A DNA stretch of 64,000 nt, taken from a virus (Duplodnaviria; Caudoviricetes). The notes beneath the pieces were generated by a model, which did no database searches, was not told where the DNA came from, and saw nothing but the letters and a program-made list of their open reading frames with translations. A program made the translations under genes and the position numbers. The stretch covers positions 32,001 to 96,000 of IMG/VR virus record IMGVR_UViG_3300021399_000002, one strand, 5' to 3'. Shown here piece by piece: positions 6,840 to 33,311 of the stretch. Within the stretch, counting starts at the first letter, position 1, and every line of letters begins with the position of its first letter.

Positions 6840-7322
6840 ATGAACAAGCTTGATTGGCGTTCAGCGCGCCATCGGACACGTGATCGCCTCCTTGAATATG
6901 ATTATCATATAATGCCAGCAGCTCCTCATACAGCGGGATTAGCGACAACCTTTCCTTGGGGTTCGGTCTACTTAGAGAATTACGATGATACCCTAATTCC
7001 TCTAGACCCACATATTACCACATTAAAAATGGTATACCCATGGGAAAATACTTCTCTTAATATTCTAAATCATTAGTTATTTCTTATTGCACGCGCAAAT
7101 GGCTTTGAAGGCGATGAAGACGATTTTAAGCTTCTCTTCTCCTCATATGTAGGCCCGCGCAGCATAATGTTTGCAACTTATGACGCTTTCCCAGAGACAG
7201 GAATAAAAGATAAACTCTATTTTGATTTAGAAGAAAAAATTCTTTATTACTGGGATTAGGAATACATTCCAGTTAATGCAATGCTTATAGCAGACACTAC
7301 TTTGGATGGAGGCGAAGCATAA
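6840..7322 (+). CDS. Hypothetical virion protein, TAG-recoded
   Basis: Reads through 2 TAG to TAA, which overlaps the next ATG. Confidence 0.7.
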
Positions 7323-13568: not shown

Positions 13569-16500
13569 ATGGCAAGTAAAGTAAGCGGCATTATTGAAAA
13601 AATATAGACTGGAAGCGGTACTCATGCAATCGCGGCAACCGCTTATGGATATTGCGAAACAGCCGCCAATGAGCCAGCTAAAATTGTAGACATGAGTGGT
13701 TTTAAACTTAATGAAGGAGTTACTATTCATGTTAAATTTAAGAATTCAAATAGCGCAAGTAATCCTACACTTAACGTGTAGGATACTGGCGCGAAGCCAA
13801 TTATTTATGGAACTACTATTAAAGATAATACTGATAATATATATGGCTGGAATGCAAATGATATTTTAATATTAACATATGATGGAACAAATTGGGTAAT
13901 TAGTAATAGTGCTTATGCAACAAGTGCAGGCTCCGTTTCTTCTGGAAATATAAGACCTATAAAAAGTAAAACTTTCATTACTAAATTATATAATTCGCCA
14001 TCATCGGGTGATAATTTTTATCAAACAGTTTTTAATGTTATACCAGACACTTATGATGCTATTTGGAAAATAAGATATAGATTAACTTTTACAGTTTCTG
14101 GGCACAATGATTATAACGCAATATATGATTGTGATATGAGTGGCAGGAGTTAGAATCTTTATAGTTATCATTGTTATAATAGTTTAGTTACATATCCTAT
14201 TTATTATCATGTATTATTTCGTGGTTCAAGTTTAAGTTATCCACATGAAGTTGGTTTTAGAATTGCAAGTTCATCTGGTGATACAACAATTTAGAAAACT
14301 GTTAAAGTAGATATTATTGAAGCGATAAATTGTACAATTTCTTTATTTGATGAAATAAAATCTTATAAAAATGTAACTGTTACAGGATACGCTAGAACTG
14401 ATATCACTGCTACTAGTAATGGATTATAGGAGACCGGTGATTCAGATTCATATGCTTATTATGTCTATAGTAATGGTTTTCGCATGACTGCTGGCGCGAA
14501 TAAAGTACTTAGATACACTTTTTTTGGAAGACTTGCAGATGGAACATATGAATCTTTTACAATAACTAGTAATACTACTAATACTTCTAAAATTAAAAAC
14601 CCAAATGGGTTTTTACCTGATGGGAAAATTTATTATAACTCAAATGGGTCAGATTATGTAGGAATTACTGGAGTAACTATATATGAACAATATCATAGTA
14701 TAGATTATAGATATACATTTAATATTAGTACTACTGATATTCCAGCAAGTTCTTAGACATATATTGTATTTACATATAATACATCGGATGGTTTACTTTA
14801 TCTTGATGACACTTGGTTTACAACTACGCCTAATCAAATAGGAAAGATATATTAGCGTATAGGCAATAACTATTATAATTAGGATGATTATAGAGGATCT
14901 CTATTATTAAATAATCCATATTATATTTATGATGGAGAAGATTTACAAGTATGGTAGCCTTATGCTGAAAAAGCAAATACTGTTCTATTGTCAGGGGTAT
15001 CTAATGCAGATAATCTTAAAGCCATTGAAGCAATATCAGGCACAAGTGGTCTATTAAAGAAAACTGCGGCGAATACATGGACATTGGATACTAATAACTA
15101 TGTAACTAGTTCTGGCATTACATCAGTCACAATTGGTGCTACTTCGCCAGTATAGTCGAGTACTTCAACAGCTCAAACTGGATCTAGTGCAAGTACTACA
15201 ATTTCACTTAAAGATGCATATGGCGATACTAAAAATCCTTATGGGGCAAAAGCAAAGAATCTTATTCTTGCGGGGCCTTCTAGTGGAAGTAATGCGGTAC
15301 CAAGTTTTAGAGCATTAGTCGCAGCTGACATTCCTACATTAGCATATGTTCCTGCTACTTCTGGAGCCAATGATGTAAATACATTAGTTAATACTGGTAT
15401 ATATAATATTACTTCTGGTTAGGCTACAAATACTCCTAAAGGATATGGATTTGGTCAGTTATTAGTAATGTCATATCGTAAACATACAGGTAATACTACA
15501 ACAGATTGGGCAAGTTAGATTTATTTACATAATGGAGTTGGAACTGAAACTGGAAATGCCACCGGCCCTGGTAATGTATTATATTATAGAACTAGTAGTA
15601 CATCATCTTCTAATAGTTGGTTTTCTTGGCAAAAAGCTGTTCATACAGCTGCTGCGTATACAAAAGTTGGTAATACTGATTAGCCAGTATACATTGCAGA
15701 AGATGGCAGTGCAACTGCTATAACTGCTGTTGGCGCCGCGTATGGTGGCACTGGTAAAACAACATTAAAAGATAGTGCTAATACATTAATAAATGCTTTA
15801 GATACTGGCAATTCTGATTTAACTGCGAATGACTATGTTATTACATAGTATGTTGGTGGTGGAACTACTACTACATCTTATCATAGACGTCCTGCTTCTA
15901 AAGTAATAAATACTACTTTAGTTAAAGCGGCATTAGGTACTGATTCTTCTACTACAAATTAGTGGCTAAATAAAAAAGGATTATGGAGTACACCGACTGC
16001 AGCGGAAGTTGGGGCCATTACTAAATTAAATAATTCTACTGATAATGCGATAGTAAAATTTGATGGAACTGCTGGCGCGATATAGAATAGTGGAGTTATT
16101 ATTGATGATAATAATAATATATCTGTATCATCTATTTTATCAAATTTATATTCTGGCTATAATTTATGTAAACTACAAACTTCGGCATCTGGTACTGAAA
16201 TAGTCATAAAAACAAGATTTAAATTTATTAATTCATCGACTATGCCATCTATTCGTATTCATGGTTATTCATATGGAAAAGGCGCTCCATTAGATTTAAC
16301 TATAGTATATTATATTTATAGCAATGAATTTTATACTCCAAAAGTTATTTCTACTGGCGGTATATCTCCAGATATATATTTATTTACATATACAGAAAAT
16401 AGTATCAAATATGTAGCAGTTGGGATTAAATCTTCACTTGGCTATCTTGGTTTTACAGTCGATGCTAATGGCGGAGCACTAGGCGAATTAAATATGAATC

Positions 16501-18878
16501 CAGAAAGTACTTTATGCACTACTGGATGGACTATTGAACATAATGGTTCCGATACTTCAAATACTTTAATTCCAGTAGTAAATACTGATAATTGTAAATT
16601 AGTCCCGTATTTAGCATTATCTACTACTGTTGAAAAAACAATATCAGCAAATCTTACTTCTACTACTAATGCAGTTGCATATTATACAAACACTACTGGT
16701 AAATTTGGTAGTAAAGCAAGCGCGAATGGCGCCCTATATGCCACAAGTGCAAATGGTGCATTACAATGGGGTACTTTGCCTATAGCATAGGGTGGTACAG
16801 GGAAAACAAATGCCGCTGATGCGTGGACCGCATTAGGCGGTGGAGCGTCAGGTAAACATGCTGATTCATATTTCGCTTTAGCATCGCATAATCATGCAGC
16901 ATCAAATATTACTTCTGGTACTTTTGATGTTGCAAGAATTCCAGATTTAAGTTGGAGCAAAATTACTTCTGATAAACCCACAACATTAAGTGGTTATGGA
17001 ATTACAGATGCTAAAATTGCTTCTGGTGTAATTACACTAGGTTCTAATACAATTACTCCAATTACTAGTATTGCTGAATTAACTAATAGTACTATTACTG
17101 CAGCCGATCTTCGTACAAATTTAGGACTGTCCGCAGCCTTACGCTTTGTTGGTAAGGCAACTACCGATATGAGCGAAAGTACTACTACCGCGCCGACTGT
17201 AACAGGAGTAACTAATTATATTCCAGAAGTTGGAGATGTTGTATTAGATAAAAATAGCGATGCAGAATATGTATGTATTGCTAAAAGTGGTTCAACGTAT
17301 ACTTGGGAACTATTAGGACGTAGTGGTTCGTGGGCAATAAGTACTCACACACACGGAAATATAACTAATGGTGGGTTACTTGATGCAGCGAATATGGCAG
17401 TAGTTACTGATGGTAGTAAGAAAATTACAACTGCTGATTTATCTGTTAGTGATTCTAATGCTAGTACAAATGCAACAACTACTTTTGTACAAGCAGTAAC
17501 TTAGAATGCTCAAGGGAAAATTACGGTTACAAAAGCATCTTTAAATACAAGTGGCACATGGAGTGGTAATGCTACTACAGCAACAACTGCAACAAATCTA
17601 GCGAATAATCCTTCTATTTAGACCGCAAGCAATAGTAATCAAGTTACAATTACAGCTGGTGGAAAAACAAGCAGCGCTTATACTATACCTTACGCGACGT
17701 ATGCCGAGAGTGCAACAAGCGCTACTACCGCGACATATATAAAATGTACTGATACACGCAATACTGCACTAAATCCTGCAGATTTAACCGCGGCGCAGGG
17801 AGTACGATTTGATTTTAAAGCAAAAGAGACTATTGATTTAACAGCAACTGATAATTATGCTGGAGTAATGAGTTTTAGGCCTATAGATTGGAGTAGTGGT
17901 AAGGCACATCAGCTTGCTTTTAATAGTCAAGGGCTACATTGGCGTAATGGAAGTTCTTCATGGGGAAATTGGTATCAAATATTAGATAGTAATAATACTG
18001 CCGCTGGTACTAATAATGCCGCAACTCTTGCATGGAATACTACTTATACAATTGCAAAAATTAATGGTACCGATATTAAGTTTACTACAATGGCTAAGCC
18101 ATCATATGCTTTCACAGACTTAACAGTACATCCGACTACATTAAGTGGCTATGGAATTACAGATGCCGCGGCAAATAATCATTCTCATACACTAAAAATT
18201 GGTAATAAATCTTTAAGTGTTAGTACGAGTGAATAGGAATGGAATTTACATGATATTTTAAAATCATCTACAGATATTGGTGTAGATACTACATGGGATT
18301 AGTATGACCCAGGAGTTTATTATGTTGCATCAAGTACGACTTTTACAGGAACAAATAATCCTGAAAATGACAACACAAATAACGGCATAGCGCCATATCG
18401 TTATGGTTAGTTAATTGTAAGTCGTGCTGGTAATGGAGGAATGGCAGAATTTTATATTTCTCATAATGATTCTAATAATGCTGGTTATGGAATACATTAT
18501 AGAACGGGTTGGAATAATACATATGTAGCTAAATGGAGTGTATTAATAGATAGTTATAATTATACTCAATATACTGTAAAAAAAGATGGCACCGGTGCAT
18601 CAGGTTCTTGGGGAATTTCTATTACTGGTAATGCTGCAACCGCTTCTAAAATCTCTGCTAAACTCGCTACAACCACTAAAACTTACTTACTCGGCACTAC
18701 AACCGCAATAACCGCAACTGCCGCGAATGTAGATATAACTGGTGATACTGGCGTTTATTTAACTACAACAGCAGGCGAATTAAGTGCAGTTCGTCATTCT
18801 TATAATGTTAATGGTACAGAAAAAGCATATACTTGCTATAATACAACCGATAATTCAATTGATTTCATCTTCATTTAA
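13569..18878 (+). CDS. Very long tail fibre protein (about 1,769 aa), TAG-recoded
   Basis: ORF fragments 14484, 16242, 17169, 17868 and 18441 are all in frame with ATG 13569; PTTLSGYGITDA and GGTG fibre repeats. Confidence 0.8.
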
Positions 18879-22705: not shown

Positions 22706-22778
22706 ATTTACAGAAAGTGAGGAAAGGAACTCACCTTCTAAAAATAATTTTTTTCATTACATAAGGAGGTAATGAAGT

Positions 22779-23123
22779 ATGGCTATTAAGGTATATAGCG
22801 ATAAGACACAGAAGTTCTATAACACTGTGGAAGAAGCTAATCGGGCAGAATTTGAACTAAAGGAACAGGAAAATCGTGAAAAGATTCGCAAAGAGCGGGA
22901 AGCCGCAGAAGCGAAGGCTAAGAAGGAGCAGGAAGCCGTAGAACGCAAGGCCGCCGCAGAGAAGGTTGAAGCCGCACGCAAGGCTATGGTTGCTGCGCAG
23001 AGAAATTATCGAGATGAACTCAATAATTTTATCAAGGCATATGGCACCTATCATTTCTCTTCTAATAATGTTGATGATTTTCCACATTTGTTTGATGTGC
23101 TAAATTATGCTTTTAACTGGTAA
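22779..23123 (+). CDS. Hypothetical coiled-coil protein
   Basis: AGGAGG RBS; E/K/A-rich helix; no TAG. Confidence 0.85.
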   Translation: MAIKVYSDKTQKFYNTVEEANRAEFELKEQENREKIRKEREAAEAKAKKEQEAVERKAAAEKVEAARKAMVAAQRNYRDELNNFIKAYGTYHFSSNNVDDFPHLFDVLNYAFNW

Positions 23124-23156
23124 TGGCTCGGGCTGAGCCAAAATCAGCCCTTTCGA

Positions 23157-23242
23157 TGCCCGTAGGTGTGCGGCTGCACGGGCGGTCTCTAAAACCGCGG
23201 CCTCTGAAGCAAACGGACTGGGTTCGACTCCCAGGCGGGCAG
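23157..23242 (+). tRNA. Amber suppressor tRNA (anticodon CUA), probably Gln-inserting
   Basis: Acceptor TGCCCGT/GCGGGCA; anticodon arm GCGGT-CT CTA AA-ACCGC; T arm CTGGG-TTCGACT-CCCAG; U1-A72 and G73. Confidence 0.85.
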
Positions 23243-23615
23243 GTAAGTTAAAAATATATATGTAACATGCGAGAAAATAGTTCAATTCTATTTTATCGCT
23301 TTTCTAGTTATCTCTCTTACTAGGCGCGAAAAATAGAGAGAAGGTATGTAAGTAGCCTTTATATAAATACTACCAGGAGTCATAACCCTGTTAGCTTATC
23401 CTAGGCAGGCAGAGTTGGATACCAATGCTAGGCATCTAAAATATATAGCATCAAGTCAGCTACCTTGTCAAAGTTAGCACCATTCCTTGAGGTAAAAAGA
23501 GGCGTAAGGCGACACGACATATCGCCTGTACAAATAGGAGTTGCGAACCTACGCGTACGATTCCGTAGTTCGAACCACTAACGCAATTAGTGCTTAAAAT
23601 TACGGAATTTTTTAT

Positions 23616-23644
23616 TTGACTTTTAATAAAAATTCTGATATAAT
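23616..23644 (+). promoter_or_regulatory. sigmaA/70-type promoter
   Basis: TTGACT...TGATATAAT. Confidence 0.7.
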
Positions 23645-23676
23645 TTATTTGTAAGAAAGAGATAAGGAGAATAAAA

Positions 23677-23856
23677 ATGGAAAAAATTGTATTGAAGTAT
23701 GAAGCCGATGATGCTGGTAATAATGATACAATTACAATGGAATTTAGTTCGGAAGAAATGACTATCTGGGAACTTGCAGACCGGCTGCAGCAATTTTGTA
23801 TAGCTATTGGATATTCTCCTACTATGTTAAATACAGTATTTAAAGATTATAATTAA
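23677..23856 (+). CDS. Small acidic hypothetical protein (59 aa)
   Basis: AAGGAG RBS downstream of a promoter. Confidence 0.65.
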   Translation: MEKIVLKYEADDAGNNDTITMEFSSEEMTIWELADRLQQFCIAIGYSPTMLNTVFKDYN

Positions 23857-23859
23857 TAT

Positions 23860-23888
23860 TTGACTTTTAACATAATTTAAGATATAAT
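23860..23888 (+). promoter_or_regulatory. sigmaA/70-type promoter of the tRNA cluster
   Basis: TTGACT-N17-TATAAT. Confidence 0.7.
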
Positions 23889-23907
23889 AATTATGTTGAA
23901 AGGATAT

Positions 23908-23980
23908 GCTCCAGAAGCTCAATTGGTTGAGCACCCGGCTTATATCCGGTTGGTTCAGGGTTCGAGTCCCTGGTGGAGTA
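23908..23980 (+). tRNA. tRNA-Ile(UAU)
   Basis: Cloverleaf; CCGG-CT TAT AT-CCGG; CAGGG-TTCGAGT-CCCTG. Confidence 0.8.
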
Positions 23981-24025
23981 CACCGACAAACTAGGGCAAT
24001 GTCGTTAAAAAATAGTTTAAGCCTA

Positions 24026-24141
24026 TAGGCATATACAGCAATGTAAGATGAAAATCAACATGTTACAAGTTCGACTCTTGTTAGTACCAATAGGTATTAT
24101 AGCTCAATTGGTAGAGCGTTTGACTTAAAAGATATGTCTAG
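24026..24141 (+). ncRNA. CAGCAA-stem RNA copy 1, enclosing a circularly permuted tRNA (Phe-like)
   Basis: Stem TAGGCATAT/ATATGTCTA plus ACAGCAA; inside, the T arm and 3' acceptor TAGTACC come before the 5' acceptor GGTATTA and D arm. Confidence 0.8.
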
Positions 24142-24204
24142 TATCTCGGAGAGACCCGAGTATAAATAATGCGAGCCCATTCTATGAAATGGTAATTGCT
24201 CGAA

Positions 24205-24276
24205 TCCCGTAGGGAGGAATGGATTTCCTCGGCGGCCAGTAAACTGCAACAGATGGTTCGATTCCATATGCGGCGT
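24205..24276 (+). pseudogene. Degenerate tRNA-like element (GTA loop)
   Basis: CCGTA/TGCGG partial acceptor; GAGG/CCTC D arm; ATGG-TTCGATT-CCAT T arm; irregular anticodon loop. Confidence 0.4.
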
Positions 24277-24449
24277 ACCGATATGAAGTTCGGAGTAGAG
24301 TAAAATTAGGGTCGATAATATAGAAAGCCGGCATTCAATGATTGTTATCGGCAGTAAAACCACTTAATACTCGTAAAGAGTGCCCTAACGATTAGTAGCA
24401 TAAATATAAATGTGTCGGGTGCGAATAGGGGTGGAGAATCCTATAATTT

Positions 24450-24568
24450 AAGACACGTCAGCATTTCTTCTTTGCTTGAGGAGCCCGTCAAGTGTTGGTT
24501 CAACTCCAACCCTTCCAATTAATGGAAGGTCGCTCAATTGGCAGAAGCGCGGTTATAAACGTGTCTAG
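24450..24568 (+). ncRNA. CAGCAA-stem RNA copy 2, enclosing a circularly permuted tRNA
   Basis: Stem AGACACGT/ACGTGTCT plus CAGCA; T arm GTTGG-TTCAACT-CCAAC; closed acceptor CCTTCCA-ATTAA-TGGAAGG; then D arm. Confidence 0.8.
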
Positions 24569-24574
24569 TTTTAT

Positions 24575-24650
24575 CGCGGGATAGTGCAGAGGTCTAGCAC
24601 GGTTGGCTCATACCCAACAAGCATGGGTTCAAATCCCATTCCCGCCACCA
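24575..24650 (+). tRNA. tRNA-Met(CAU), initiator-like (C1/C72 mismatch)
   Basis: GTTGG-CT CAT AC-CCAAC; encoded CCA. Confidence 0.85.
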
Positions 24651-24689
24651 ACTCAGAGCAAATGTGTGGCTAGCAACCTACTGCTATAT

Positions 24690-24760
24690 GGCCTCTTAGC
24701 TCAGTGGTAGAGCGGGCGGCTGTTAACCGCTTGATGGGAGTCCGATTCTCTCAGAGGCCG
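24690..24760 (+). tRNA. tRNA-Asn(GUU)
   Basis: GGCCTCT/AGAGGCC; GCGG-CT GTT AA-CCGC; T loop TCCGATT. Confidence 0.85.
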
Positions 24761-24949
24761 CTCGTGCTTTGATGACCAAATGTAGCTTGGCAGTAAATAA
24801 ATATTAATGCAGATGTGGGGTTATGATGTAAGCCTTTACCTTAAAAGACGAATTTCCACAGATACAGACCTGTGGCATAAGGCTATTGACCTGAAATGAA
24901 AGGTGTCGCCCTGGCAGATGGCAAGTTCGAAATAGTCTGCCGATTTTAT

Positions 24950-25026
24950 GCCCTATTGGTGTAATTGGTTAGCACAGTACCCTTTCAAGGTGCAGACGTG
25001 GAGTTCAAATCTCCCATAGGGTACCA
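24950..25026 (+). tRNA. tRNA-Glu(UUC)
   Basis: GTACC-CT TTC AA-GGTGC; encoded CCA. Confidence 0.85.
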
Positions 25027-25182
25027 ATGTAGAGCTGACTACATAGCATTGGGTCCGGAACTGATGCATCAGCCCGAAAAACCTGATAACTAGTGTCATG
25101 GTTAGACACGGCGTGTGTTAGGTATGGTTATGAAAGCACGCAACAAATCCTAGAAATAGGTCGGGGTAGCTCCCCGTTTTAT

Positions 25183-25254
25183 ACCTGGTTCGGCTAACGG
25201 TCAGGCCACTTGTCTCTCAAGCAAGAAATATGGGTTCAATTCCCGTACTAGGTA
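25183..25254 (+). tRNA. tRNA-Glu(CUC)
   Basis: CTTGT-CT CTC AA-GCAAG; ATGGG-TTCAATT-CCCGT. Confidence 0.85.
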
Positions 25255-25474
25255 TGACGTATGTAGCAAAACGCCTCCGGCTCAGCCGAAAAGCGCGCTA
25301 CGCAGCGAGAAAAACGTGCGCTCGCAACCGTTAACACGGATTTAGCACTTAAACTACCACCGGCACGATTGGGAGGAGTGTTTATGAATGAACTTTCTAA
25401 ACGATACTCCATAATCAAACGTGATATGTGGCTTAGCGACAAACGGTATAAAAGAAGCGAAGTAAAGTGCAAAT

Positions 25475-25535
25475 TAGGCGCGAACAGCAAACTTTTATAA
25501 GAACATTTTTGCTTAAAAATATTTTATGCGCCTAG
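25475..25535 (+). ncRNA. CAGCAA-stem RNA copy 3 (minimal)
   Basis: Stem TAGGCGCG/TGCGCCTA plus ACAGCAA; internal AU hairpin with a GCT-containing loop. Confidence 0.7.
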
Positions 25536-25539
25536 AAGT

Positions 25540-26310
25540 TTTGGTAGTATGCGCCGTTGTACCGCTCAGAGCTTGCTCTGGTCGAGGTATTCTACCATAT
25601 GAAACGGACGTCGCGCGATTGCTGACGACTGAGACGCGCGCGTAATAAATGTCGGAACAAGTCGTAAATACTACTTTTGTAATCGGCTTACATGGCTAGA
25701 TTACGCCAAGCATCGAAAGGTTTGGAAATCCAAGGCGGAAATAACACACCGTGCATCGAAAATAGTCGAGAAATACGAATGATACGATGGTATGCCTTTG
25801 CCTTGACTGCAAAGGTGGGAAGGGACTCCAAGTGGAAGGTAACGACTTCAGGACGCTTCCTAGTAAAAAGACCGTGAAACTCGGTAGATGGATTTTAAGT
25901 AGTTTAAATGGCGCGTGCTTAATGAGTACACGCTTTGCATGAGGTAAATGCCAGTGTCGAGAATGGCGCTGAATACTAGTTGCATTTTCCTTGGTAATCT
26001 CCAGTATGAGAAAAAACTATCGTTTGGGCTGGCTGTAAGGCCCTTGGTCCACCCCTACGCCGGACACCGTTGAGATGTGCAGCAATCGCGCCGTTGAGAC
26101 GTGCAGTAACCGCGCCGTAGATGAGTTTCTCTTGACTCTGGGCGGTTCCCCTAAATAAGATTACTTCCCAATACAGAAAAACCGGGCGTTTCTAGAGCGC
26201 AATGATAGTGCGGTAAGGGTTGCATACTATCAGATTTACAGGAGTGATGAGAAGCTACTTCACTTAATACTCTGCTTGGCCATGGACGCATGGCGAACAA
26301 ATCCTGTATT
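25540..26310 (+). ncRNA. Large structured non-coding RNA (about 770 nt, unassigned)
   Basis: No credible CDS; GC-richer than coding DNA; 11-bp long-range pairing 25614-25624 with 26080-26090; many hairpins. Confidence 0.55.
26067..26122 (+). repeat. 24-bp tandem repeat (2.3 copies)
   Basis: CCGTTGAGATGTGCAGCAATCGCG / CCGTTGAGACGTGCAGTAACCGCG / CCGTAG. Confidence 0.85.
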
Positions 26311-26314
26311 TTAT

Positions 26315-26399
26315 GCCCGAGTGGTGGAATAGGCAGACACACCGCACTTAAAATGCGGAGCTGTATAGCGTGCCGGTTCAAGTCCGGCCCCGGGCACCA
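26315..26399 (+). tRNA. tRNA-Leu(UAA)
   Basis: CCGCA-CT TAA AA-TGCGG; long variable arm; CCA. Confidence 0.9.
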
Positions 26400-26646
26400 A
26401 ATTTACGCCAAAAGGCGTTATTTTTATATAGGAGAAAATTAAAATGAAATTAAAAATATTAGTTTTCTTTATTATATTATTATTCATATTATTTTATCCT
26501 TCTATCGCTTATTAAGGAGTAATACAATGGAAGCAATTATCTCTACTTTTTTTGAAACTACAGATTTAGGAATAATTTTATTTGGTAGTATATTATTCAT
26601 TATTGTAATAATTGAATTTTTTAATCATAAGCCAAAATTTTAATAT

Positions 26647-26675
26647 TTGACTTATAATAAAAATTTTGTTATAAT
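26647..26675 (+). promoter_or_regulatory. sigmaA/70-type promoter
   Basis: TTGACT-N17-TATAAT. Confidence 0.7.
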
Positions 26676-26804
26676 AATTATGTACCAAGGGGAGAGATCC
26701 CGAGAAAGAAGAAACTTTCTTGTACGCCGCCAATGAGTGTCATTTTTAGGCGGGATATAAATTGAACTCCAGGGAGTATTAGGAATGACTAACTTCTCCC
26801 ATTT

Positions 26805-26879
26805 GCCTCCATCGTACAACGGCAAGTACGCTACATTCGTAATGTAGCTATGGCGGTCCGAATCCGTCTGGAGGCTCCA
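26805..26879 (+). tRNA. tRNA-Thr(CGU)
   Basis: GCCTCCA/TGGAGGC; CTACA-TT CGT AA-TGTAG; CCA. Confidence 0.85.
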
Positions 26880-26903
26880 TTAAAAAAATCTGAAAGGAAA
26901 ATT

Positions 26904-27125
26904 ATGAAAAAGATTTATGTAGTTTTTATTGAGCGATATACTGATTGTGAATGTAGAAATTGGCGTATAGAAAGAGAATATGTAAAAACGGATAATATCG
27001 CAACATATATTGAATTGAAGAAATCTCAGATTGAATCTCGTAGCTATTGGTGGATGGATTATTGTAAGGGCGCGGATGACCGGCCCGATGTTAAAGCAGA
27101 AGAGCTTGAGATTAAAGTATTTTAA
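26904..27125 (+). CDS. Small hypothetical protein
   Basis: GAAAGGA RBS; MKKIYVV start. Confidence 0.65.
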   Translation: MKKIYVVFIERYTDCECRNWRIEREYVKTDNIATYIELKKSQIESRSYWWMDYCKGADDRPDVKAEELEIKVF

Positions 27126-27318
27126 TATACCAACGGACAAGGCTTAGGCGCATGACAATATCAGCGAAGAGGAAGAGGAAGCGTAAGCGTTATTAACCTA
27201 TAAGTGATATTGAACAGAGCGGTGGGACGCGAGTGGTTGGTAATTATATGGAACTAATCTATCCAGAGTTCCTGCGGTTCAAGGATAGGGTTTTGCGGCA
27301 CCTTAGACCGCATAATAT

Positions 27319-27425
27319 GGGATGTGATGCCAGTTCAGGGTACTGGATGAGGTAAACCGCAAGGTGATCACATAAGGGTAATGCAAAAACCGCCCGCTGG
27401 AGTTCAAATCTCCCACATTCCACCA
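27319..27425 (+). ncRNA. Atypical 107-nt tRNA-like RNA with extra arms
   Basis: Acceptor GGGATGT/ACATTCC plus ACCA; T arm GGAG-TTCAAAT-CTCC; extra internal hairpins; possible GCA loop. Confidence 0.6.
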
Positions 27426-27432
27426 TTAATAT

Positions 27433-27518
27433 GCGTCGGTAGTCCGTAGAAGGTAGCGGGTGGGTCTGTAAAACCCATGTCAATGACTCGGATGGTTCGA
27501 TCCCATCCCGGCGCACCA
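27433..27518 (+). tRNA. tRNA-Tyr(GUA)
   Basis: TGGGT-CT GTA AA-ACCCA; variable arm; CCA. Confidence 0.9.
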
Positions 27519-27596
27519 AATTGTTGTTCAGCTGACAACCCAGTGGATGGATTTGACGCATTCCGTGCTACTACTGCGAGAGGGTTCGCGCACCAC

Positions 27597-27705
27597 GAGC
27601 CCATGAAGGTAGCACATTATCTCATGTACCAAGTGTACAAGGAGTTTTCGGGTGCGCGAAAGCGCATCTTGTGTCCAAATTAAGTTCGAATCTTAATATG
27701 GGCCC
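27597..27705 (+). ncRNA. Atypical tRNA-like RNA (acceptor and T arm, no anticodon arm)
   Basis: GCCCAT/ATGGGC; ATTAAG-TTCGAAT-CTTAAT; internal GGTGCGC-GAAA-GCGCATC hairpin. Confidence 0.5.
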
Positions 27706-27788
27706 TTTACTTCGCAACCAGAAACGTACTGGCCAATTCCACAAATATTGCGGCAAGTTTTCGGGTTCTTGTTAAAAATCCCGTCCAT

Positions 27789-27862
27789 GCCTCCCTAATC
27801 CAAATGGCAGAGATAGCGCGCTAAGAACGCGTCCAGTGTGAGTTCGAATCTCACGAGAGGTA
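27789..27862 (+). tRNA. tRNA-Leu(AAG), short variable arm
   Basis: GCGCG-CT AAG AA-CGCGT; GTGAG-TTCGAAT-CTCAC. Confidence 0.8.
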
Positions 27863-27996
27863 CTTACGCCAGACCAAGGCCGTTCAAGAGGAAACAAGGA
27901 ACCCAGTTTCCATGGTCTATGCCTATGGTAAACGCATTAATTACGTAATAGGCGTCTTGCTCTGAGTAGCTATTACCAAAAGAGACATAGGGACAT

Positions 27997-28068
27997 CTCC
28001 GGCTAGTCTAAGGGATAGGACACATGGCTACGGACTATGGAATCGGCGTTCAAATCGTCGGCTGGAGA
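27997..28068 (+). tRNA. tRNA-Arg(ACG)
   Basis: CTCCGGC/GCTGGAG; CATGG-CT ACG GA-CTATG. Confidence 0.85.
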
Positions 28069-28111
28069 CTTCACGCGAAAAGCGCTAATTCATTTTGGAG
28101 GTATCTATAAT

Positions 28112-28651
28112 ATGAATGAACCAAGACTAAAGATTCTACCACCATGGACTATTACAATTCGTAAGTTTGAAGCCCTATTTGACGGTGATCCGCAGATTGC
28201 ATGTAATTGTAATTTTGGTGGTGCTACTCCTTCCATTGTGCTAGCTTGTAATGATGGCGATAAGGTTGCCGCTCTTCTACAAATTCTACCTGAAGAAGTA
28301 GATTTTGGTAATGTCAAGCTAAAGGTAATGGTTGATGGAACACCTAGCAACCGCGTCTTTAAGAGTAAGACTGACCTATTTGATACTGCTTTTGCTAAGA
28401 ATCCTGCCTATGCGTATTCTGTTTGTCCTGCTGAGAAAGGTTATCAGTGGATTGGCACTACATATGTTGTATTTAACAACTGTGTTGTACAGTTCGCGGC
28501 CGATAATCTAAATGACTGCCACGGTATCATTAGTACTCTGTATGAAACAATTGCTGGTGAACTTCTAACTGGCCCTGCTACTGAAGGTGTATTTTTTAAT
28601 ACCAATGTTGAGCGTGCTGGTCTGGGAATGCCGCTTGGAGAGTGGCCGTAA
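28112..28651 (+). CDS. Hypothetical protein (179 aa)
   Basis: GGAGG RBS before MNEPRL; the longer ORF start overlaps tRNA-Arg. Confidence 0.8.
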   Translation: MNEPRLKILPPWTITIRKFEALFDGDPQIACNCNFGGATPSIVLACNDGDKVAALLQILPEEVDFGNVKLKVMVDGTPSNRVFKSKTDLFDTAFAKNPAYAYSVCPAEKGYQWIGTTYVVFNNCVVQFAADNLNDCHGIISTLYETIAGELLTGPATEGVFFNTNVERAGLGMPLGEWP

Positions 28652-28932
28652 TTAACAATTAGGAGAACTAAATGATAGTTGAATTAACAAATCATTGGGT
28701 TGAAACGAGTGGTCAATATGAAATTGAAGGAGTAGAAGAATATAATGATTATTTTCGATTCTACTTCGGCAAGGGTAAATGGTCAAAAAAATATCACATA
28801 CCAACGTATACTTATAGAATTATACAAAAGTGAATAATTAACAACTAATTGGGAACAAGTTACCGTAGAAGACTTGCGCGATAGCGGACCTGTAACGGGG
28901 AGAGGAGGTCGTAAATATCCACTTTCCGCCAT

Positions 28933-29004
28933 GCCCAGGTAGCCAAATGGAAAGGCTGGAGACTGAAAATCTCCCATGCGGTGGTCCGATTCCACCCCTG
29001 GGCA
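28933..29004 (+). tRNA. tRNA-Phe(GAA)
   Basis: GCCCAGG/CCTGGGC; GGAGA-CT GAA AA-TCTCC. Confidence 0.9.
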
Positions 29005-29115
29005 CTAAATCCTATAATAGCCAGTGATAGTATGGACACTATGGACGCCCTTTAAAGTTGTTCGCGGTAGTGAGAATAACCTTCGCCGTGGCGAAGTAAA
29101 AGAACCACGGAATAT

Positions 29116-29187
29116 ATCTCTCTGGCGTAATGGTAGCGTAGCAGACTCTTAATCTGTCAGGTAAGGGTTCGAGTCCCTTGGGAGGTA
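29116..29187 (+). tRNA. tRNA-Lys(CUU)
   Basis: GCAGA-CT CTT AA-TCTGT. Confidence 0.85.
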
Positions 29188-29191
29188 CTTC

Positions 29192-29263
29192 GCTCGTGTA
29201 GCCAACCGGTAAGGCACTAGACTTTTAATCTAGGTACAGTGGGTTCAATTCCCACCACGGGCA
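29192..29263 (+). tRNA. tRNA-Lys(UUU)
   Basis: CTAGA-CT TTT AA-TCTAG. Confidence 0.85.
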
Positions 29264-29423
29264 CAATAAAGGAGGAATTAGTATGGAAGAATTATCTATT
29301 TCTTGGAAGGAATTTATTCATCCAGATATGAATGCAATAAGGCGCAGAGATGAATTTCTTAATTCTAATATATGTGAAAATATTGAATTTATAGATGGAG
29401 AAATTCATGCTGATATAACATAT

Positions 29424-29499
29424 ACTCCATTAGTTCAGAGGATAGAACAATCGCCTTCTAAGCGATAAATCATAGGTTCAAGTCCTATATGGAGTACCA
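29424..29499 (+). tRNA. tRNA-Arg(UCU)
   Basis: ATCGC-CT TCT AA-GCGAT; CCA. Confidence 0.9.
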
Positions 29500-29630
29500 T
29501 GCCGCTGTTGTATAAGCATTCTGAGAAAGCAGAGGATGCTAGCCGGTGGCACCAACTTCCCAACATACTGTCATGCGTGGGTGAAATAAGATGAGACAGG
29601 CGTTTCACGATGTCGGCATAAATCGTATAT

Positions 29631-29658
29631 TTGACTTTTTATAAAATTATGTTATAAT
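29631..29658 (+). promoter_or_regulatory. sigmaA/70-type promoter
   Basis: TTGACT...TGTTATAAT. Confidence 0.7.
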
Positions 29659-29688
29659 TATTATAGTAACAGGAAAGGAAGCAAGATT

Positions 29689-29919
29689 ATGAGAAATCCA
29701 AATCGTATTGATAGGTTTTGTGATGAACTTAAAGCAATTTGGCACCAGGTGCCAGATTGGCGCTTTGGGCAACTGATGGAAAATATGCTTGGTGCAAGAC
29801 TTCAGGCAGTATCAAATTCTAATGATTTCTTTTATACTGAGGATGAAGAATTGTTTGCTTTCTTTAAAAATTATATGAATGAGATTATAAAAGAAGGCAG
29901 ACAAAATAAAGATTGGTAA
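29689..29919 (+). CDS. Conserved phage hypothetical protein (MR.P.RI...W...PDWRFGQL)
   Basis: RBS, and a motif pattern seen in small phage proteins. Confidence 0.8.
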   Translation: MRNPNRIDRFCDELKAIWHQVPDWRFGQLMENMLGARLQAVSNSNDFFYTEDEELFAFFKNYMNEIIKEGRQNKDW

Positions 29920-30126
29920 TTACGCAATCCACTTGATATGGCTGTGACTACAAGGCGCGGAAAAGTGGCGGTAATCTCTTGCCCAAGTAAGTTGAAACGA
30001 TATATACCCTTGGGATGAAAAGCTTTAATGATGCGAAGATAGAGATATAACGTGAGTTTAGATATGTGTGTGTGTAGTCGGTCTCCCTGTGGCCCGTTAC
30101 GTATGAGTTGACACAGGGGAAGCTTC

Positions 30127-30200
30127 CGAGCATTGGCACAAGAGGTTAGCGCACAGAGCTGATAACTCTGAGGTTCCTAGTTCGATTCTAGGATGCTCGA
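30127..30200 (+). tRNA. tRNA-Ile(GAU)
   Basis: CGAGCAT/ATGCTCG; CAGAG-CT GAT AA-CTCTG. Confidence 0.9.
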
Positions 30201-30306
30201 CTACTAACGTAAATTCCGTATACGTCCGAATTACTACACAAAACGATGTAGTTGATACGGTAGAGAAAACTACGGCGCTATGCTAAGTAACAACGAAACT
30301 TGGTGA

Positions 30307-30377
30307 AGGAGTGTAAGATAATGGTAGTCGCGCGGTCTCCAAAACCGCTCGTGTTGGTTCGAATCCAGCCGCTCCTG
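30307..30377 (+). tRNA. tRNA-Trp(CCA)
   Basis: AGGAGTG/CGCTCCT; GCGGT-CT CCA AA-ACCGC. Confidence 0.9.
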
Positions 30378-30381
30378 CTTA

Positions 30382-30446
30382 AAGACTCGTCAGCAACATT
30401 TTTCAAGCATCTGACTGTTAATCTGATTAGCTATAAACGAGTCTTG
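30382..30446 (+). ncRNA. CAGCAA-stem RNA copy 4, displaying an Asn-like anticodon stem-loop
   Basis: Stem AAGACTCGT/ACGAGTCTT plus CAGCAA; internal ATCTGA-CT GTT AA-TCTGAT. Confidence 0.8.
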
Positions 30447-30453
30447 TTTTTAT

Positions 30454-30527
30454 GCCCTACTACCCCAACTGGCAGAGGGAACTGACTCAAAATCAGTAAA
30501 GTCTCGGTCCGAATCCGAGGTAGGGTA
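30454..30527 (+). tRNA. tRNA-Leu(CAA), short variable arm
   Basis: ACTGA-CT CAA AA-TCAGT; T loop TCCGAAT. Confidence 0.85.
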
Positions 30528-30794
30528 CTTATGTTTATCTTAAATAGGCCCAGTGCGCTAAAGCGATATAATGTTCATGGGTTTCGCGTAATAAGATAAG
30601 CATTGCGCCAAAAAATACAAAGCATTAAGGCGCAATGAGTAAGCTCCTGCTCGTATTATTAAACAATTTATTTATTGGAGCATATTAGTAATTAGAGTGC
30701 GATCGGTAACACTGTAAATAATTCCGAGAAATATAGGAAATGGTTTGATAGCCGGAATTCTGTAATTGGGGTGAGATACCATCCAGTCCTATAT

Positions 30795-30871
30795 GCCAGA
30801 GTAGCAGAAATGGAATATGCTGTTGGCTTAGAACCAGCGTAATTTTGTGGGTTCGACTCCCACCCCTGGTA
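30795..30871 (+). tRNA. tRNA-Leu(UAG)
   Basis: GTTGG-CT TAG AA-CCAGC; 8-nt variable region. Confidence 0.85.
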
Positions 30872-30878
30872 CTTTTAT

Positions 30879-30950
30879 GGGGTCGTAGTTTAAAGGTTAG
30901 AATATTCGGTTTGCACCCGTTTGATGTGGTTTCGACTACCACCGGCTCCA
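30879..30950 (+). tRNA. tRNA-Ala(UGC)
   Basis: G3:U70 pair; CGG-TT TGC AC-CCG. Confidence 0.85.
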
Positions 30951-30974
30951 GTATATTATATTTAGGAGAAGAAA

Positions 30975-31151
30975 ATGACTGTTAAAGAATTAATTGATGA
31001 ACTTAATAAATTTGAACCAGAACGCCGTGTATTTTTATATAATCATGGCTCATATGATGAATCTCCAGAAATTTTAGGCTGTTATGATTCTGCATTATAT
31101 GATGAAGATGATAACGAAATAGAAAAAATTGTAGAGTTATATGAATATTAA
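30975..31151 (+). CDS. Small hypothetical protein (MTVKELI...)
   Basis: AGGAG RBS; 58 aa. Confidence 0.65.
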   Translation: MTVKELIDELNKFEPERRVFLYNHGSYDESPEILGCYDSALYDEDDNEIEKIVELYEY

Positions 31152-31155
31152 TATA

Positions 31156-31227
31156 GGTTCCAACGCTCGTCGGCCGGGTACGGGTCTGCAAAATCCGCGT
31201 TAGTGAGTTCAACTCTTACTGGAACCT
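31156..31227 (+). tRNA. tRNA-Cys(GCA)
   Basis: GGTTCCA/TGGAACC; U73; CGGGT-CT GCA AA-ATCCG. Confidence 0.85.
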
Positions 31228-31249
31228 CAAATTTGTAAAAGAGGTCATT

Positions 31250-31519
31250 ATGAGAATAATTAAAGCTGCAAAAAAGACTGATGAATATATTACAACTTGT
31301 AATAATTGCGGTTCAATATTAGGTATAAAGCGTAATGATTTATCAAATAATGCTATGATAGACGATAATCAGTGTACTGAATGGACTTATTATTGTGGAG
31401 TGTGTCAATGCTGCAATCATTTAAAAGGCTCATTCCGCAAATTATTTCCATGGATAATGGAGGAAGAAAATGATAGGAAATTACAAAGTGATAACTCTGT
31501 GCGGGTCAACACGCTTTAA
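31250..31519 (+). CDS. Zinc-ribbon hypothetical protein
   Basis: CxxC...CxxC. Confidence 0.7.
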   Translation: MRIIKAAKKTDEYITTCNNCGSILGIKRNDLSNNAMIDDNQCTEWTYYCGVCQCCNHLKGSFRKLFPWIMEEENDRKLQSDNSVRVNTL

Positions 31520-31778
31520 GGAAGATTTTGAACGCATTAATAAAGAACTTACTTTAGCAGGTAATATTGTTATAAGTGTAGGATGTTTTGGTCATGCTGG
31601 TGATGTATTTACAGATGAAGAAAAAGTAATGTTAGATGATATTCACAAGCGCAAGATTGATATGGCTGATGCTATTTATGTAATCAATAAAGATGGATAT
31701 ATTGGTGAAAGTACAAAAAGTGAAATAAAATATGCTCTTGAGCATAATAAACCGGTACTGTTTATGGAGGCTCCATAA
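31470..31778 (+). CDS. DUF4406/nucleoside 2-deoxyribosyltransferase-like small protein
   Basis: ITLCGS...H.RKIDMAD.IYVIN..GYIG.ST..EI.YA motif. Confidence 0.75.
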   Translation: MIGNYKVITLCGSTRFKEDFERINKELTLAGNIVISVGCFGHAGDVFTDEEKVMLDDIHKRKIDMADAIYVINKDGYIGESTKSEIKYALEHNKPVLFMEAP

Positions 31779-31779
31779 T

Positions 31780-32025
31780 ATGAGAAAAGGGCGCGGTATC
31801 GATCACACCTGGGAGATAAGGAAATATTTAGGTGATATAGCTTTATATGCTCATTGTAAATGTGGATTTAATTATGCTTGTTCTTCAAGTAAAAGAAAAT
31901 CAGATGGAAGTTTTAGTTTAGAACAAGAAATAACTAAATTATATCATTATTGTCCATATTGTGGAGCGCATAAAAAATGGTATAATGATATTCCTAGAAA
32001 AATAAATAAGTTTCAATATGAATAA
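31780..32025 (+). CDS. Zinc-ribbon hypothetical protein
   Basis: HCKCG and YCPYCG; GGAGG RBS. Confidence 0.7.
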   Translation: MRKGRGIDHTWEIRKYLGDIALYAHCKCGFNYACSSSKRKSDGSFSLEQEITKLYHYCPYCGAHKKWYNDIPRKINKFQYE

Positions 32026-32026
32026 T

Positions 32027-32114
32027 GGTAGCTAAACCGGACAAGCGTGCCGGCTCCGCCTCGAAAGCGGTAGGCACTGAAAGGTGTGGGGTGCAAGTCC
32101 TCTGGCTATCGCCA
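32027..32114 (+). tRNA. tRNA-Ser(CGA) with an 8/4 acceptor/T-stem fold
   Basis: 8-bp GGTAGCTA/TGGCTATC; 4-bp GGGG-TGCAAGT-CCTC; CCGC-CT CGA AA-GCGG; G73-CCA. Confidence 0.75.
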
Positions 32115-32168
32115 TATATTGAAAAAATTTGGATAGCCTAAACATTATATTAGACGGAGTTGATGCAT

Positions 32169-32450
32169 ATGAGAAATCGTGCAGAAAAGCGTCATAATGA
32201 TTGGCGCAAAGCAATTCGTAAAAGAAAAATTGTTGAAGAAGTTTATCGGTGGCCCGAAGGTTGGTATGATAACCTTCATCAATATAGTAAAAATAAAATT
32301 TTTTGTAGCTGTCCAATGTGCCGAAGAAAAACTAGTAAAATTAAAATGAAAGATAGTTATGGGCCTGGCGGGAAAAATTGGCCTATTGCAGATGAAAAAC
32401 GAATTGAAGAAATGAATGATCAAATATTTGACAATGAAGAAGAAATCTGA
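32169..32450 (+). CDS. Basic hypothetical protein (CSCPMC)
   Basis: GGAG RBS; Arg/Lys-rich. Confidence 0.75.
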   Translation: MRNRAEKRHNDWRKAIRKRKIVEEVYRWPEGWYDNLHQYSKNKIFCSCPMCRRKTSKIKMKDSYGPGGKNWPIADEKRIEEMNDQIFDNEEEI

Positions 32451-32456
32451 TATAAT
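32428..32456 (+). promoter_or_regulatory. sigmaA/70-type promoter
   Basis: TTGACA-N17-TATAAT. Confidence 0.7.
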
Positions 32457-32646
32457 TATTATAGAAAAAGGGAGATAAGATATACATAAGAGGCAATTTG
32501 ATAAAATTTGTTGCAAAAGAATTTTAAAGAAAATCTCCTTTCAAAAGAGTCCTGTACCCTTGAGAAACTCGTATCAGATTCCTTTAAAGAATCATGGATA
32601 AGCAGGACCGCGCGAAATAAAAGGGTAAGAGAATAAACGCATTTAT

Positions 32647-32719
32647 CGAGGATGTAGTGTAGCGGTTAACACGGTTGATTTGGGATCAACAATGGCAGTT
32701 CGACTCTGACATCTTCGAC
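32647..32719 (+). tRNA. tRNA-Pro(UGG)
   Basis: GTTGA-TT TGG GA-TCAAC. Confidence 0.8.
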
Positions 32720-32723
32720 TGGA

Positions 32724-32816
32724 TAGGCCATTACAGCAAATTATTTATAAAAGTAAAAGAAATGTCTGTAAAACATAACTGAGAAGGTTCGATCCCTTCA
32801 AATTTAAATGGCCTAG
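32724..32816 (+). ncRNA. CAGCAA-stem RNA copy 5, with a Tyr-like anticodon arm and T arm
   Basis: Stem TAGGCCATT/AATGGCCTA plus ACAGCAA; ATGT-CT GTA AA-ACAT; GAAGG-TTCGATC-CCTTC. Confidence 0.8.
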
Positions 32817-32824
32817 TTTTTTAT

Positions 32825-32932
32825 TAGACCAAACAGCAATTAGGCTCGCTCTTAGCGAGGGTGGTATAAGTGGTAGTACATTTACTGTAAAGTAAAAAAT
32901 TGGAGTTCGAATCTCCACCTAATTTGGTCTAG
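32825..32932 (+). ncRNA. CAGCAA-stem RNA copy 6, with a near-complete Tyr-like tRNA body
   Basis: Stem TAGACCAA/TTGGTCTA plus CAGCAA; D-like GTATAAGTGGTAGTAC; CT GTA AA loop; TGGAG-TTCGAAT-CTCCA. Confidence 0.8.
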
Positions 32933-33050
32933 TTTGAATATTCGCTCTATCTTGGAGCTAGTAGATTGCCGCGTTGGATTGTTCCTATTTGAAAGAGGTA
33001 GAGTAGTATCTACAACTCTTCCGCGGCGTTTTATAGGAGAAATAAGAATA

Positions 33051-33311
33051 ATGAAAAATATAGATGGATATATCAATAGAATACAGACACCAGATGGTAA
33101 AATATATGCACTTACCTGTGAACCACTTGAAAATTTAAAATTAAATGAAGTTTATAATTGTCTAAAAGTAATGGATATGCTATTATATAAATATGCTTAT
33201 GAGCCAAAAACAGTTGTAGAATTTAATTCTACGGAAGAGATGGCAAAATATTTTCATATGTTTCTTTCAATAATCCTTCCAGAAGAATACAGGTATGATA
33301 AAGAAAAATGA
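33051..33311 (+). CDS. Hypothetical protein
   Basis: AGGAG RBS before MKNIDG. Confidence 0.65.
   Translation: MKNIDGYINRIQTPDGKIYALTCEPLENLKLNEVYNCLKVMDMLLYKYAYEPKTVVEFNSTEEMAKYFHMFLSIILPEEYRYDKEK

Follow-up and report, generated by a model that had tools for sequence, protein, structure and literature searches.

The Ro60 protein and its Y RNAs form a classic RNA-surveillance particle of animals, some bacteria, and a few phages, and bacterial Y RNAs are co-transcribed with Ro60 genes (e.g., Salmonella rsr-yrlBA). Y RNA genes adjoin Ro60 genes in bacteria and phages, and the RNAs have a terminal stem with a conserved motif on its 5' strand or in a bulge (PMC4201824, PMC12135203). Over 250 bacteria and phages encode YrlA next to rsr, and this RNA carries the Ro motif GNCGAA (Chen et al. 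2014, PMC4201824), while phage phiLo encodes the Y-like RNAs Yrl1 and Yrl2 upstream of a phage Ro60, where they bind Ro60 and host PNPase (PMC12135203). In some jumbo phages, a ROT/TROVE protein and a tRNA-like partner have been described as an RNA-repair platform (Iyer et al. 2021, PMC7824862). Here we describe six RNA elements in a 64,000-nucleotide (nt) stretch of DNA (i.e., the window; bases 32001-96000 of the virus record IMGVR_UViG_3300021399_000002, 182,655 bp, 35% G+C) from a 183-kb, TAG-recoded rumen phage. The elements lie on the + strand within 24026-32932 of the window and are all closed by a common covarying stem, W-AGRC-NN / NN-GYCU-W-G; this stem and the unpaired (A)CAGCA(A) that comes after it are referred to here as the handle. 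Our data indicate that they are likely to be Y-RNA-like partner RNAs of a Ro60-like DUF2828 protein encoded in the same window, which we infer them to bind.

The closing helix (P1) comprises 8-11 bp and is fully paired in all six copies. Its outer part is conserved (W-AGRC / GYCU-W-G), while its inner part differs in each copy yet remains paired. Zero to two spacer bases separate the 5' strand of P1 from CAGCA(A), and the interior is variable. CAGCA is invariant among the six copies, with the sixth base being A in five of them and U in copy 2; the stem is joined to ACAGCAA in copies 1, 3, and 5 and to CAGCA(A/U) in copies 2, 4, and 6. None of the six copies has a free acceptor end. An earlier note on this DNA had placed the six loci, and its positions hold to the base, as do its descriptions of a stem that changes from copy to copy with pairing kept and of an invariant CAGCA. 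The 5' half-motif AGRC-N4/5-CAGCA occurs seven times in the window, compared to 0.9 expected from shuffles, and six of the seven have the matching 3' GYCT(A/T)G and a full closing stem. The half-motif at 7151, within coding sequence, has no 3' partner, and the remainder of the 182,655-bp genome contains no further complete copy.

When IMG/VR was scanned with a pattern based on sequence only, most matches were attributable to chance, and those with paired stems were all on large phage contigs. Five large phage contigs contain 4-8 copies apiece, each set on a single strand, and the loci fetched overall yielded 211 distinct complete elements of 50-130 nt. Among 137 elements chosen by sequence motif, with no pairing demanded, unconstrained P1 positions pair in 78-98% (23-50% in slid controls), and all four Watson-Crick types occur at these positions. 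Unlike this unbiased set, 36 permuted-tRNA members were selected partly on P1, T-stem, and acceptor pairing, with the D stem not a criterion; here RNAalifold and an explicit pair count gave 95.6% paired cells versus 65% when shuffled and a covariation score of 0.75 versus 0.19. Compensatory changes were found at 18 of 22 pairs in these members, in P1, the T stem, the closed acceptor, and the D stem. The covarying RNA structure proposed from the window alone is thus borne out by the 137-element comparison. When elements were collected by P1 only, CAGCA was present in 65 of 85 and the remainder carried CUGCAA, CGGCAA, CCGCAA, or CAGCGA, so the core of the motif is C-N-GCAA. Furthermore, a G two bases past the 3' strand is conserved in 188 of 210 elements. 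Some matches to R1, a covariance model with copies 1 and 2 among its seed members, have no handle (e.g., L218:528-619) and were rejected as junctions of two adjacent ordinary tRNAs. The L218/L219 lineage had been read as having DUF2828 and a tRNA array without elements, a reading overturned by a CUGCAA variant and by one canonical copy elsewhere on the contig. The region from the DUF2828 gene to the ligase gene had no blastn match in 50,697 deposited phage genomes.

The handle and the DUF2828 gene are linked in phage genomes. Among contigs found by the RNA motif alone, 13 of 15 contain a DUF2828 homologue and the other two are fragments. The distance from an element to a DUF2828 gene downstream of it on the same strand is 200-900 nt in four large contigs, and in 7-15 kb fragments 23-630 nt separate an element from the start of the gene that follows it. 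Across 80 viral DUF2828 loci, the gene strand contains 148 5' motifs; its complement has 13, and reversed controls gave 6. All R1 matches (195/195) fell on the DUF2828 gene strand. Contigs with no element in the 10-kb flank contain elements elsewhere, often just across contig ends.

The decisive test of this linkage comes from bacteria (80 bacterial or metagenome-assembled genome (MAG) loci from GTDB genomes, with DUF2828 at 31-53% identity), where we found 90 elements on the gene strand versus 3 on the opposite strand and 3 in controls. With a looser detector, one to five tandem elements are present within 500 nt upstream of the start codon at 37 of 70 bacterial loci, while a background of 0.06-0.10 per 500 nt predicts approximately 5-7 loci by chance. 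Together with the 13 of 15 contigs above, these counts agree with the DUF2828 association that the earlier note had anticipated. Bacterial loci with elements include cultured Thermoactinomyces, Anaerocolumna, and two Enterococcus species as well as MAGs labelled Lachnospiraceae, Erysipelotrichaceae, Acholeplasmatales, Bacteroidota, and others. Most bacterial loci have no nearby tRNA gene and their neighbours are unrelated (a glycosidase, DegV, an ABC-F protein, a PTS regulator); at two inspected loci, the RNA is the sole upstream neighbour in common. Bacterial elements are minimal (50-72 nt), comprising the handle and a poorly structured A-rich loop with no tRNA-like cargo. The chromosome of Anaerocolumna sp. 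AGMB13025 also contains a YrlA-type RNA (L279:5838-5934; Rfam 53.6 bits) with an ACAGCAA handle, located 60 nt upstream of the DUF2828 gene and preceded by a short CUGCAA element. Compensatory change has given this RNA a C-G pair at the position of the invariant A-U of the phage copies. Two handle elements, GAGAUGCU-(A/U)ACAGCAA, also lie upstream of a DUF2828 gene in a MAG labelled Promethearchaeota (L286:1412-1660), on a 6.6-kb contig that was binned with an Asgard archaeon and is possibly viral or mis-binned. In Enterococcus sp. LJL51, two handle elements and the DUF2828 gene follow directly after a tRNA-like gene (L282:5724-5793; 58 bits), and because of this arrangement co-processing with tRNA may occur outside phages.

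The predicted model of the DUF2828 protein aligns over its full length with Ro60 structures in a fold comparison and has the Ro60 order of a helical-repeat ring followed by a vWA domain. Its Pfam matches are DUF2828 and DUF7788 only.

The cargo enclosed by the handle differs from copy to copy. Copy 1 contains a body like that of tRNA-Leu(UAA) but permuted, running from the T arm through a loop-closed acceptor and the D arm to CUUAAAA. The body in copy 2, also permuted, resembles a class II tRNA, with a long variable arm ahead of the T arm, closed acceptor, and D arm, and lacks an anticodon arm. The acceptor of both has 7 bp and is closed by a short loop, and the two copies score 92 and 67 bits against R1, respectively. 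The cargo of copy 4 mimics an anticodon arm, with a 6-bp arm containing one U-U mismatch and a loop, CUGUUAA, equal to the phage tRNA-Asn loop. This copy is positioned 3 nt downstream of tRNA-Trp and 7 nt upstream of tRNA-Leu. Copy 5, which starts 4 nt past tRNA-Pro, combines an anticodon arm bearing the tRNA-Tyr loop CUGUAAA with a T arm (Rfam tRNA, 26 bits). An ortholog of copy 5 in a related phage (L150:4036-4130) has the Asn loop CUGUUAA in place of CUGUAAA, a single-base difference, and the DUF2828 protein of that phage is 92% identical. The body in copy 6 resembles an almost complete tRNA whose parts follow the normal order; it has an additional hairpin, and its Tyr-like anticodon loop comprises 6 nt. 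Its score against the Rfam tRNA model (RF00005; 32.8 bits) exceeds 29, but only model positions 6-65 are matched; ARAGORN labels it 'tRNA-???' with a 6-nt loop and a 2-base anticodon. The body is enclosed by P1, and the free acceptor end and 7-nt anticodon loop of a tRNA are both lacking. Copy 3 has the weakest tRNA likeness, and its cargo is short and A/U-rich. The heptamer CUUAAAA, found in copies 1 and 3, is that of the tRNA-Leu(UAA) loop. The earlier note had taken the cargo to be tRNA-derived, with copy 3 as the weakest case. Permuted bodies, anticodon loops, and Rfam tRNA scores uphold this for copies 1, 2, 4, 5, and 6, and it is not supported for copy 3 because CUUAAAA is all that is found there, with no convincing stem.

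Table 1. Coordinates of the six elements, the DUF2828 gene, and other features of the window.
Feature	Position	Strand	Remarks
Copy 1	24026-24141	+	P1 24026-24034 / 24132-24140; bulge A+CAGCAA 24035-24041
Copy 2	24450-24568	+	P1 24451-24458 / 24559-24566; CAGCAU 24459-24464
Copy 3	25475-25535	+	P1 25474-25482 / 25527-25535; CAGCAA 25485-25490; R1 36.9 bits
Copy 4	30382-30446	+	P1 30382-30390 / 30437-30445; CAGCAA 30391-30396
Copy 5	32724-32816	+	P1 32724-32732 / 32807-32815; CAGCAA 32734-32739
Copy 6	32825-32932	+	P1 32823-32833 / 32923-32933; CAGCAA 32834-32839
DUF2828 + DUF7788 protein, 513 amino acids	40343-41884	+	Ro60-like helical-repeat ring and vWA fold; proposed partner
RNA-repair neighbourhood	37766-49390	+	around the DUF2828 gene, downstream of the tRNA array
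Methyltransferase	37766-38557		RNA-repair neighbourhood
Metallophosphoesterases (two)	39214-39852, 48557-49390		RNA-repair neighbourhood
RlaP nucleotidyltransferase	41975-42733		RNA-repair neighbourhood
OB-fold RNA ligase	45359-46612		RNA-repair neighbourhood
Band-7 protein	47551-48489		RNA-repair neighbourhood
Promoter-like site TTGACT-17-TATAAT	23860-23888	+	precedes tRNA-Ile and copies 1-2; consensus scan only
Similar promoter-like site	29631-29658		unit with copy 4; consensus scan only
Promoter-like site, perfect consensus	32428-32456		unit with tRNA-Pro and copies 5-6; consensus scan only
ROOL RNA	34551-35130		Rfam 266 bits, passes threshold
cow-rumen-3 RNA	25910-26053		Rfam 121 bits, passes threshold
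cow-rumen-4 RNA	22710-22775		Rfam 61 bits, passes threshold
RAGATH-33-like stretch	25675-25786		42 bits, far under the cut-off of 120

The phage is TAG-recoded because its long + strand frames are open only with TAG as sense (up to 1769 amino acids at 13569-18878) and because a tRNA with a CTA anticodon is present at 23157-23242 (ARAGORN label 'tRNA-Pyl'). The TAG-as-sense frames are mostly in the first third of the window (1-22673). There are 24 tRNA genes in 23,100-34,100, all on the + strand, and the ROOL, cow-rumen-3, and cow-rumen-4 RNAs as well as the RAGATH-33-like stretch are located within the tRNA array or adjoin it. The copies abut tRNAs at distances of 3-7 nt. A consensus scan found strong sigma-70-like sites ahead of the tRNA units (Table 1) and no promoter belonging to any of the six elements; since they have none of their own, the elements appear to be co-transcribed with the tRNAs. 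An additional tRNA-like sequence is present at 31156-31227 (Rfam tRNA, 32.4 bits; no ARAGORN call). The 308-nt non-coding gap between copies 1 and 2 (24142-24449) has no Rfam or tRNA call and contains a T-arm-like GGUUCGAUUCC; in a relative, 24138-24298 is covered by high-depth RNA-library contigs (run X20).

We consider the elements to be most likely the partner RNAs of DUF2828 because the same handle adjoins the DUF2828 gene in many phages and bacteria, and we read the handle as a DUF2828-binding site because its anatomy matches that of Y RNAs beside a Ro60-fold gene. According to this proposal, the terminal helix and the unpaired, conserved 5' stretch (N)A-C-N-GCAA (here CAGCAA) would form a protein-binding handle, leaving the cargo free to vary, and the DUF2828/vWA protein would bind this handle to give a Ro/Y-RNA-type particle. 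The RNAs would probably be released by tRNA processing, which would cut them from polycistronic tRNA-array transcripts, because they abut tRNAs and have no promoters of their own. The cargo may then engage a second partner, in that imitation of tRNA would display the particle to tRNA-recognising enzymes; the parts imitated would be the tRNA elbow with a closed acceptor and anticodon arms with tRNA-Leu(UAA), Asn, and Tyr loops. The particle might serve in surveillance or repair of damaged tRNA or as a decoy for host anticodon nucleases. We regard such a role as plausible, with somewhat less than even confidence, because unchargeable tRNA-like cargo is encoded adjacent to an RNA ligase, RlaP, phosphoesterases, and a methyltransferase.

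Several points weigh against this interpretation. The handle motif, (A)CNGCAA, is not the GNCGAA(N)G or CGAA of known Y RNAs (PMC4201824, PMC12135203); the earlier note had already remarked that CAGCAA did not look like the canonical Ro60 site, and the published motif agrees with it. No TROVE or Ro60 sequence match emerged from Pfam or when PDB sequences were searched with a profile built on the DUF2828 alignment, and the copy nearest to the DUF2828 gene in the window is 7.4 kb away. Because elements in the phage lineage accompany tRNA arrays as well, linkage there could partly reflect shared synteny; about half of the bacterial DUF2828 loci have no element within 500 nt by the detector used here. 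The actual partner could also be a different conserved protein encoded in the repair island. DUF2828 binding, RNA processing, and biological role are what we infer from the structure and conservation of the RNA, its genomic linkage, and the Ro60-like fold. Finally, RNA-library contigs cover some copies (25331-26266, with copy 3 and neighbouring RNAs, weakly in the same-sample runs X6/X13; 32723-32977 of a relative in run X20), which is a hint of expression only, as such contigs can neither show RNA ends, strand, or level nor exclude DNA carry-over.

Other explanations account for part of these observations. The elements could be free-standing tRNA decoys or sponges whose cargo sequesters host anticodon nucleases or enzymes that modify tRNA, independently of DUF2828, with the handle stabilising them or marking their excision. 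This would fit cargo heptamers that equal the anticodon loops of the phage tRNA-Leu(UAA), Asn, and Tyr, the placement of elements against tRNAs, and the closed acceptor ends, because of which the RNAs cannot be charged. We nevertheless consider it unlikely, given that a mere stabilising stem needs no invariant unpaired CAGCAA or conserved AGRC/GYCU and that bacterial members without tRNA-like cargo still keep the handle and its position upstream of DUF2828. That position, directly before the gene and on the same strand, would also suit a cis-acting leader that regulates DUF2828 in bacteria, with no trans-acting particle. For the phage elements, which share polycistronic units with tRNAs and have no separate promoters, the cis-acting signal could be a site at which RNase processes the array transcript. 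However, the phage copies lie kilobases from the gene, interleaved with tRNAs, and tandem sets of two to five complete stem-enclosed units with diverse structured cargo are unlike a leader, so that a cis-acting signal seems decidedly improbable.

Copies 1 and 2 might instead be circularly permuted tRNA genes matured by circularisation or ligation (e.g., by the phage RNA ligase), with the handle as the joining motif. The 3' half does precede the 5' half, the phage does encode an RNA ligase, and P1 brings the ends together. Yet a loop of 3-9 nt closes the acceptor, CCA is absent, copy 2 lacks, as do most relatives, the anticodon arm that joining would have to restore, and the same handle also encloses non-tRNA cargo and tRNA-like bodies in normal order. 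No bulge-helix-bulge motif is apparent, and no back-joined RNA-library contigs were seen, though contigs could hardly reveal them; overall, we give this explanation very little credence. Least probable, in our judgement barely so at all, are repeats acting at the DNA level (i.e., mobile-cassette remnants or sites at which recombination reshuffles pieces of tRNA). As such repeats would predict, different cargo can occupy the space between the conserved ends, and copy number and order vary among related phages, but the copies are not near-identical, they are strictly strand-specific, and they are linked to one protein family across phyla. The compensatory changes in the stems point to selection on the RNA, which counts against this explanation. 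Readings of the elements as a self-cleaving ribozyme, a bulge-helix-bulge intron, or a CRISPR-repeat mimic were dropped on the informal judgement that there are too few conserved positions and that the motifs do not match.

If the elements are indeed DUF2828 partner RNAs, then DUF2828, a family of viruses, bacteria, and plants without an assigned function, gains a concrete candidate ligand. The finding also accounts for odd "tRNA-like" genes within phage tRNA arrays, and tRNA-mimic cargo beside RNA ligase and RlaP genes may constitute a new phage answer to tRNA-cleaving defences. Cultured Enterococcus, Thermoactinomyces, and Anaerocolumna are available for studying the pairing of RNA and protein.

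Circularly permuted tRNA genes, which Soma and colleagues are said to have found in 2007 in Cyanidioschyzon merolae and which are reportedly present in other algae, resemble copies 1 and 2 in placing the 3' half of the tRNA before the 5' half. They differ in that the copies have a loop-closed acceptor, with no sign of processing to a chargeable end, and mostly lack the anticodon arm, a topology that is that of YrlA and not of a working tRNA gene.

A second likeness, which was not raised in the earlier note, is to the Class I RNAs of dictyostelids (RF01414; Kjellin et al. 2021, PMC7919456). In these RNAs the 5' strand of a short stem that pairs the two ends is followed immediately by an unpaired CCUUACAGCAA, and judging from the supplement sequences they share with the handle elements a variable interior, a length of approximately 60 nt, and a U/G-rich tail past the 3' strand. 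The curated Class I sequences read GUUGAC-CUUACAGCAA-variable-GUCAAC-UG (supplement, PMC7919456), and CUUACAGCAA is found in bacterial handle members. Of the 11-nt Class I motif, only ACAGCAA is shared here, the full 11-mer being absent from the six copies. RF01414 is the best match of one bacterial element (L295:5913-5973), which it aligns end to end at 16.6 bits, below the gathering score of 41.5; copies 1-2 and copy 3 gave no match to RF01414 at E values of 10 or less. Class I RNAs are reported to be unique to Dictyostelia, and their known binder is the RRM protein Rnp1A (PMC7919456). They have a DUSE promoter approximately 60 nt upstream, while the phage elements have sigma-70-like promoters ahead of tRNA units. 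The protein atlas we consulted returned viral taxa only, with no dictyostelid entry. The resemblance appears, from the sequences compared, to be real, with the elements falling outside RF01414, and it suggests a partner protein to seek for the 20-year-old puzzle of the Dictyostelium Class I RNAs. More tentatively, the stem and (UU)ACAGCAA handle may mark an ancient DUF2828-branch particle spread across bacteria, tailed phages, and giant viruses, with the abundant Class I RNAs of social amoebae as its eukaryotic members and the cargo of large phages as a programmable slot for tRNA parts, a view we put forward with more doubt than belief. The slot would display the elbow or the Asn, Tyr, or Leu anticodon arms and thereby capture or guide tRNA-directed enzymes during tRNA-cleavage conflict.

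The closest comparison remains that with YrlA (RF02553) and Ro60. Searches of Rfam 15 and of the literature, whose coverage did not extend to Burroughs & Aravind 2016, returned no RNA with a CAGCAA handle and a link to DUF2828. For the permuted class, the best Rfam match is YrlA, at 28-54 bits, and all such scores lie below the gathering score of 69 (copy 1, 33.9 across the full model; relatives, 27.9-39.8; Anaerocolumna, 53.6). Every Rfam match of the handle was below threshold. The YrlA module of T arm, closed acceptor, and D arm is present in copies 1-2 and 36 relatives and is replaced by other cargo in copies 3-6. Cargo is far more varied than in YrlA (anticodon arms, anticodon plus T arm, whole tRNA-like bodies, unstructured loops), the phage copies are embedded in tRNA arrays, and the proposed partner belongs to Pfam DUF2828/DUF7788 in place of a sequence-level TROVE match. 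What is common to both systems is an end-joining terminal stem, a motif on the 5' strand or in a bulge, a variable interior, and several RNA genes for one protein gene, at many loci beside the gene of a ring-plus-vWA protein of Ro60-like fold. To the extent that genomic data can show it, the elements behave as Y RNAs do. The covarying handle, the YrlA-like copies 1-2, and the full-length alignment of the DUF2828 model with Ro60 structures agree with the modular Y-like class that the earlier note had proposed. These data point to a second branch of the Ro60/Y RNA theme, unrelated in sequence, with DUF2828 and an RNA handle of its own, which is frequent in Bacillota and in phages of the gut and rumen.

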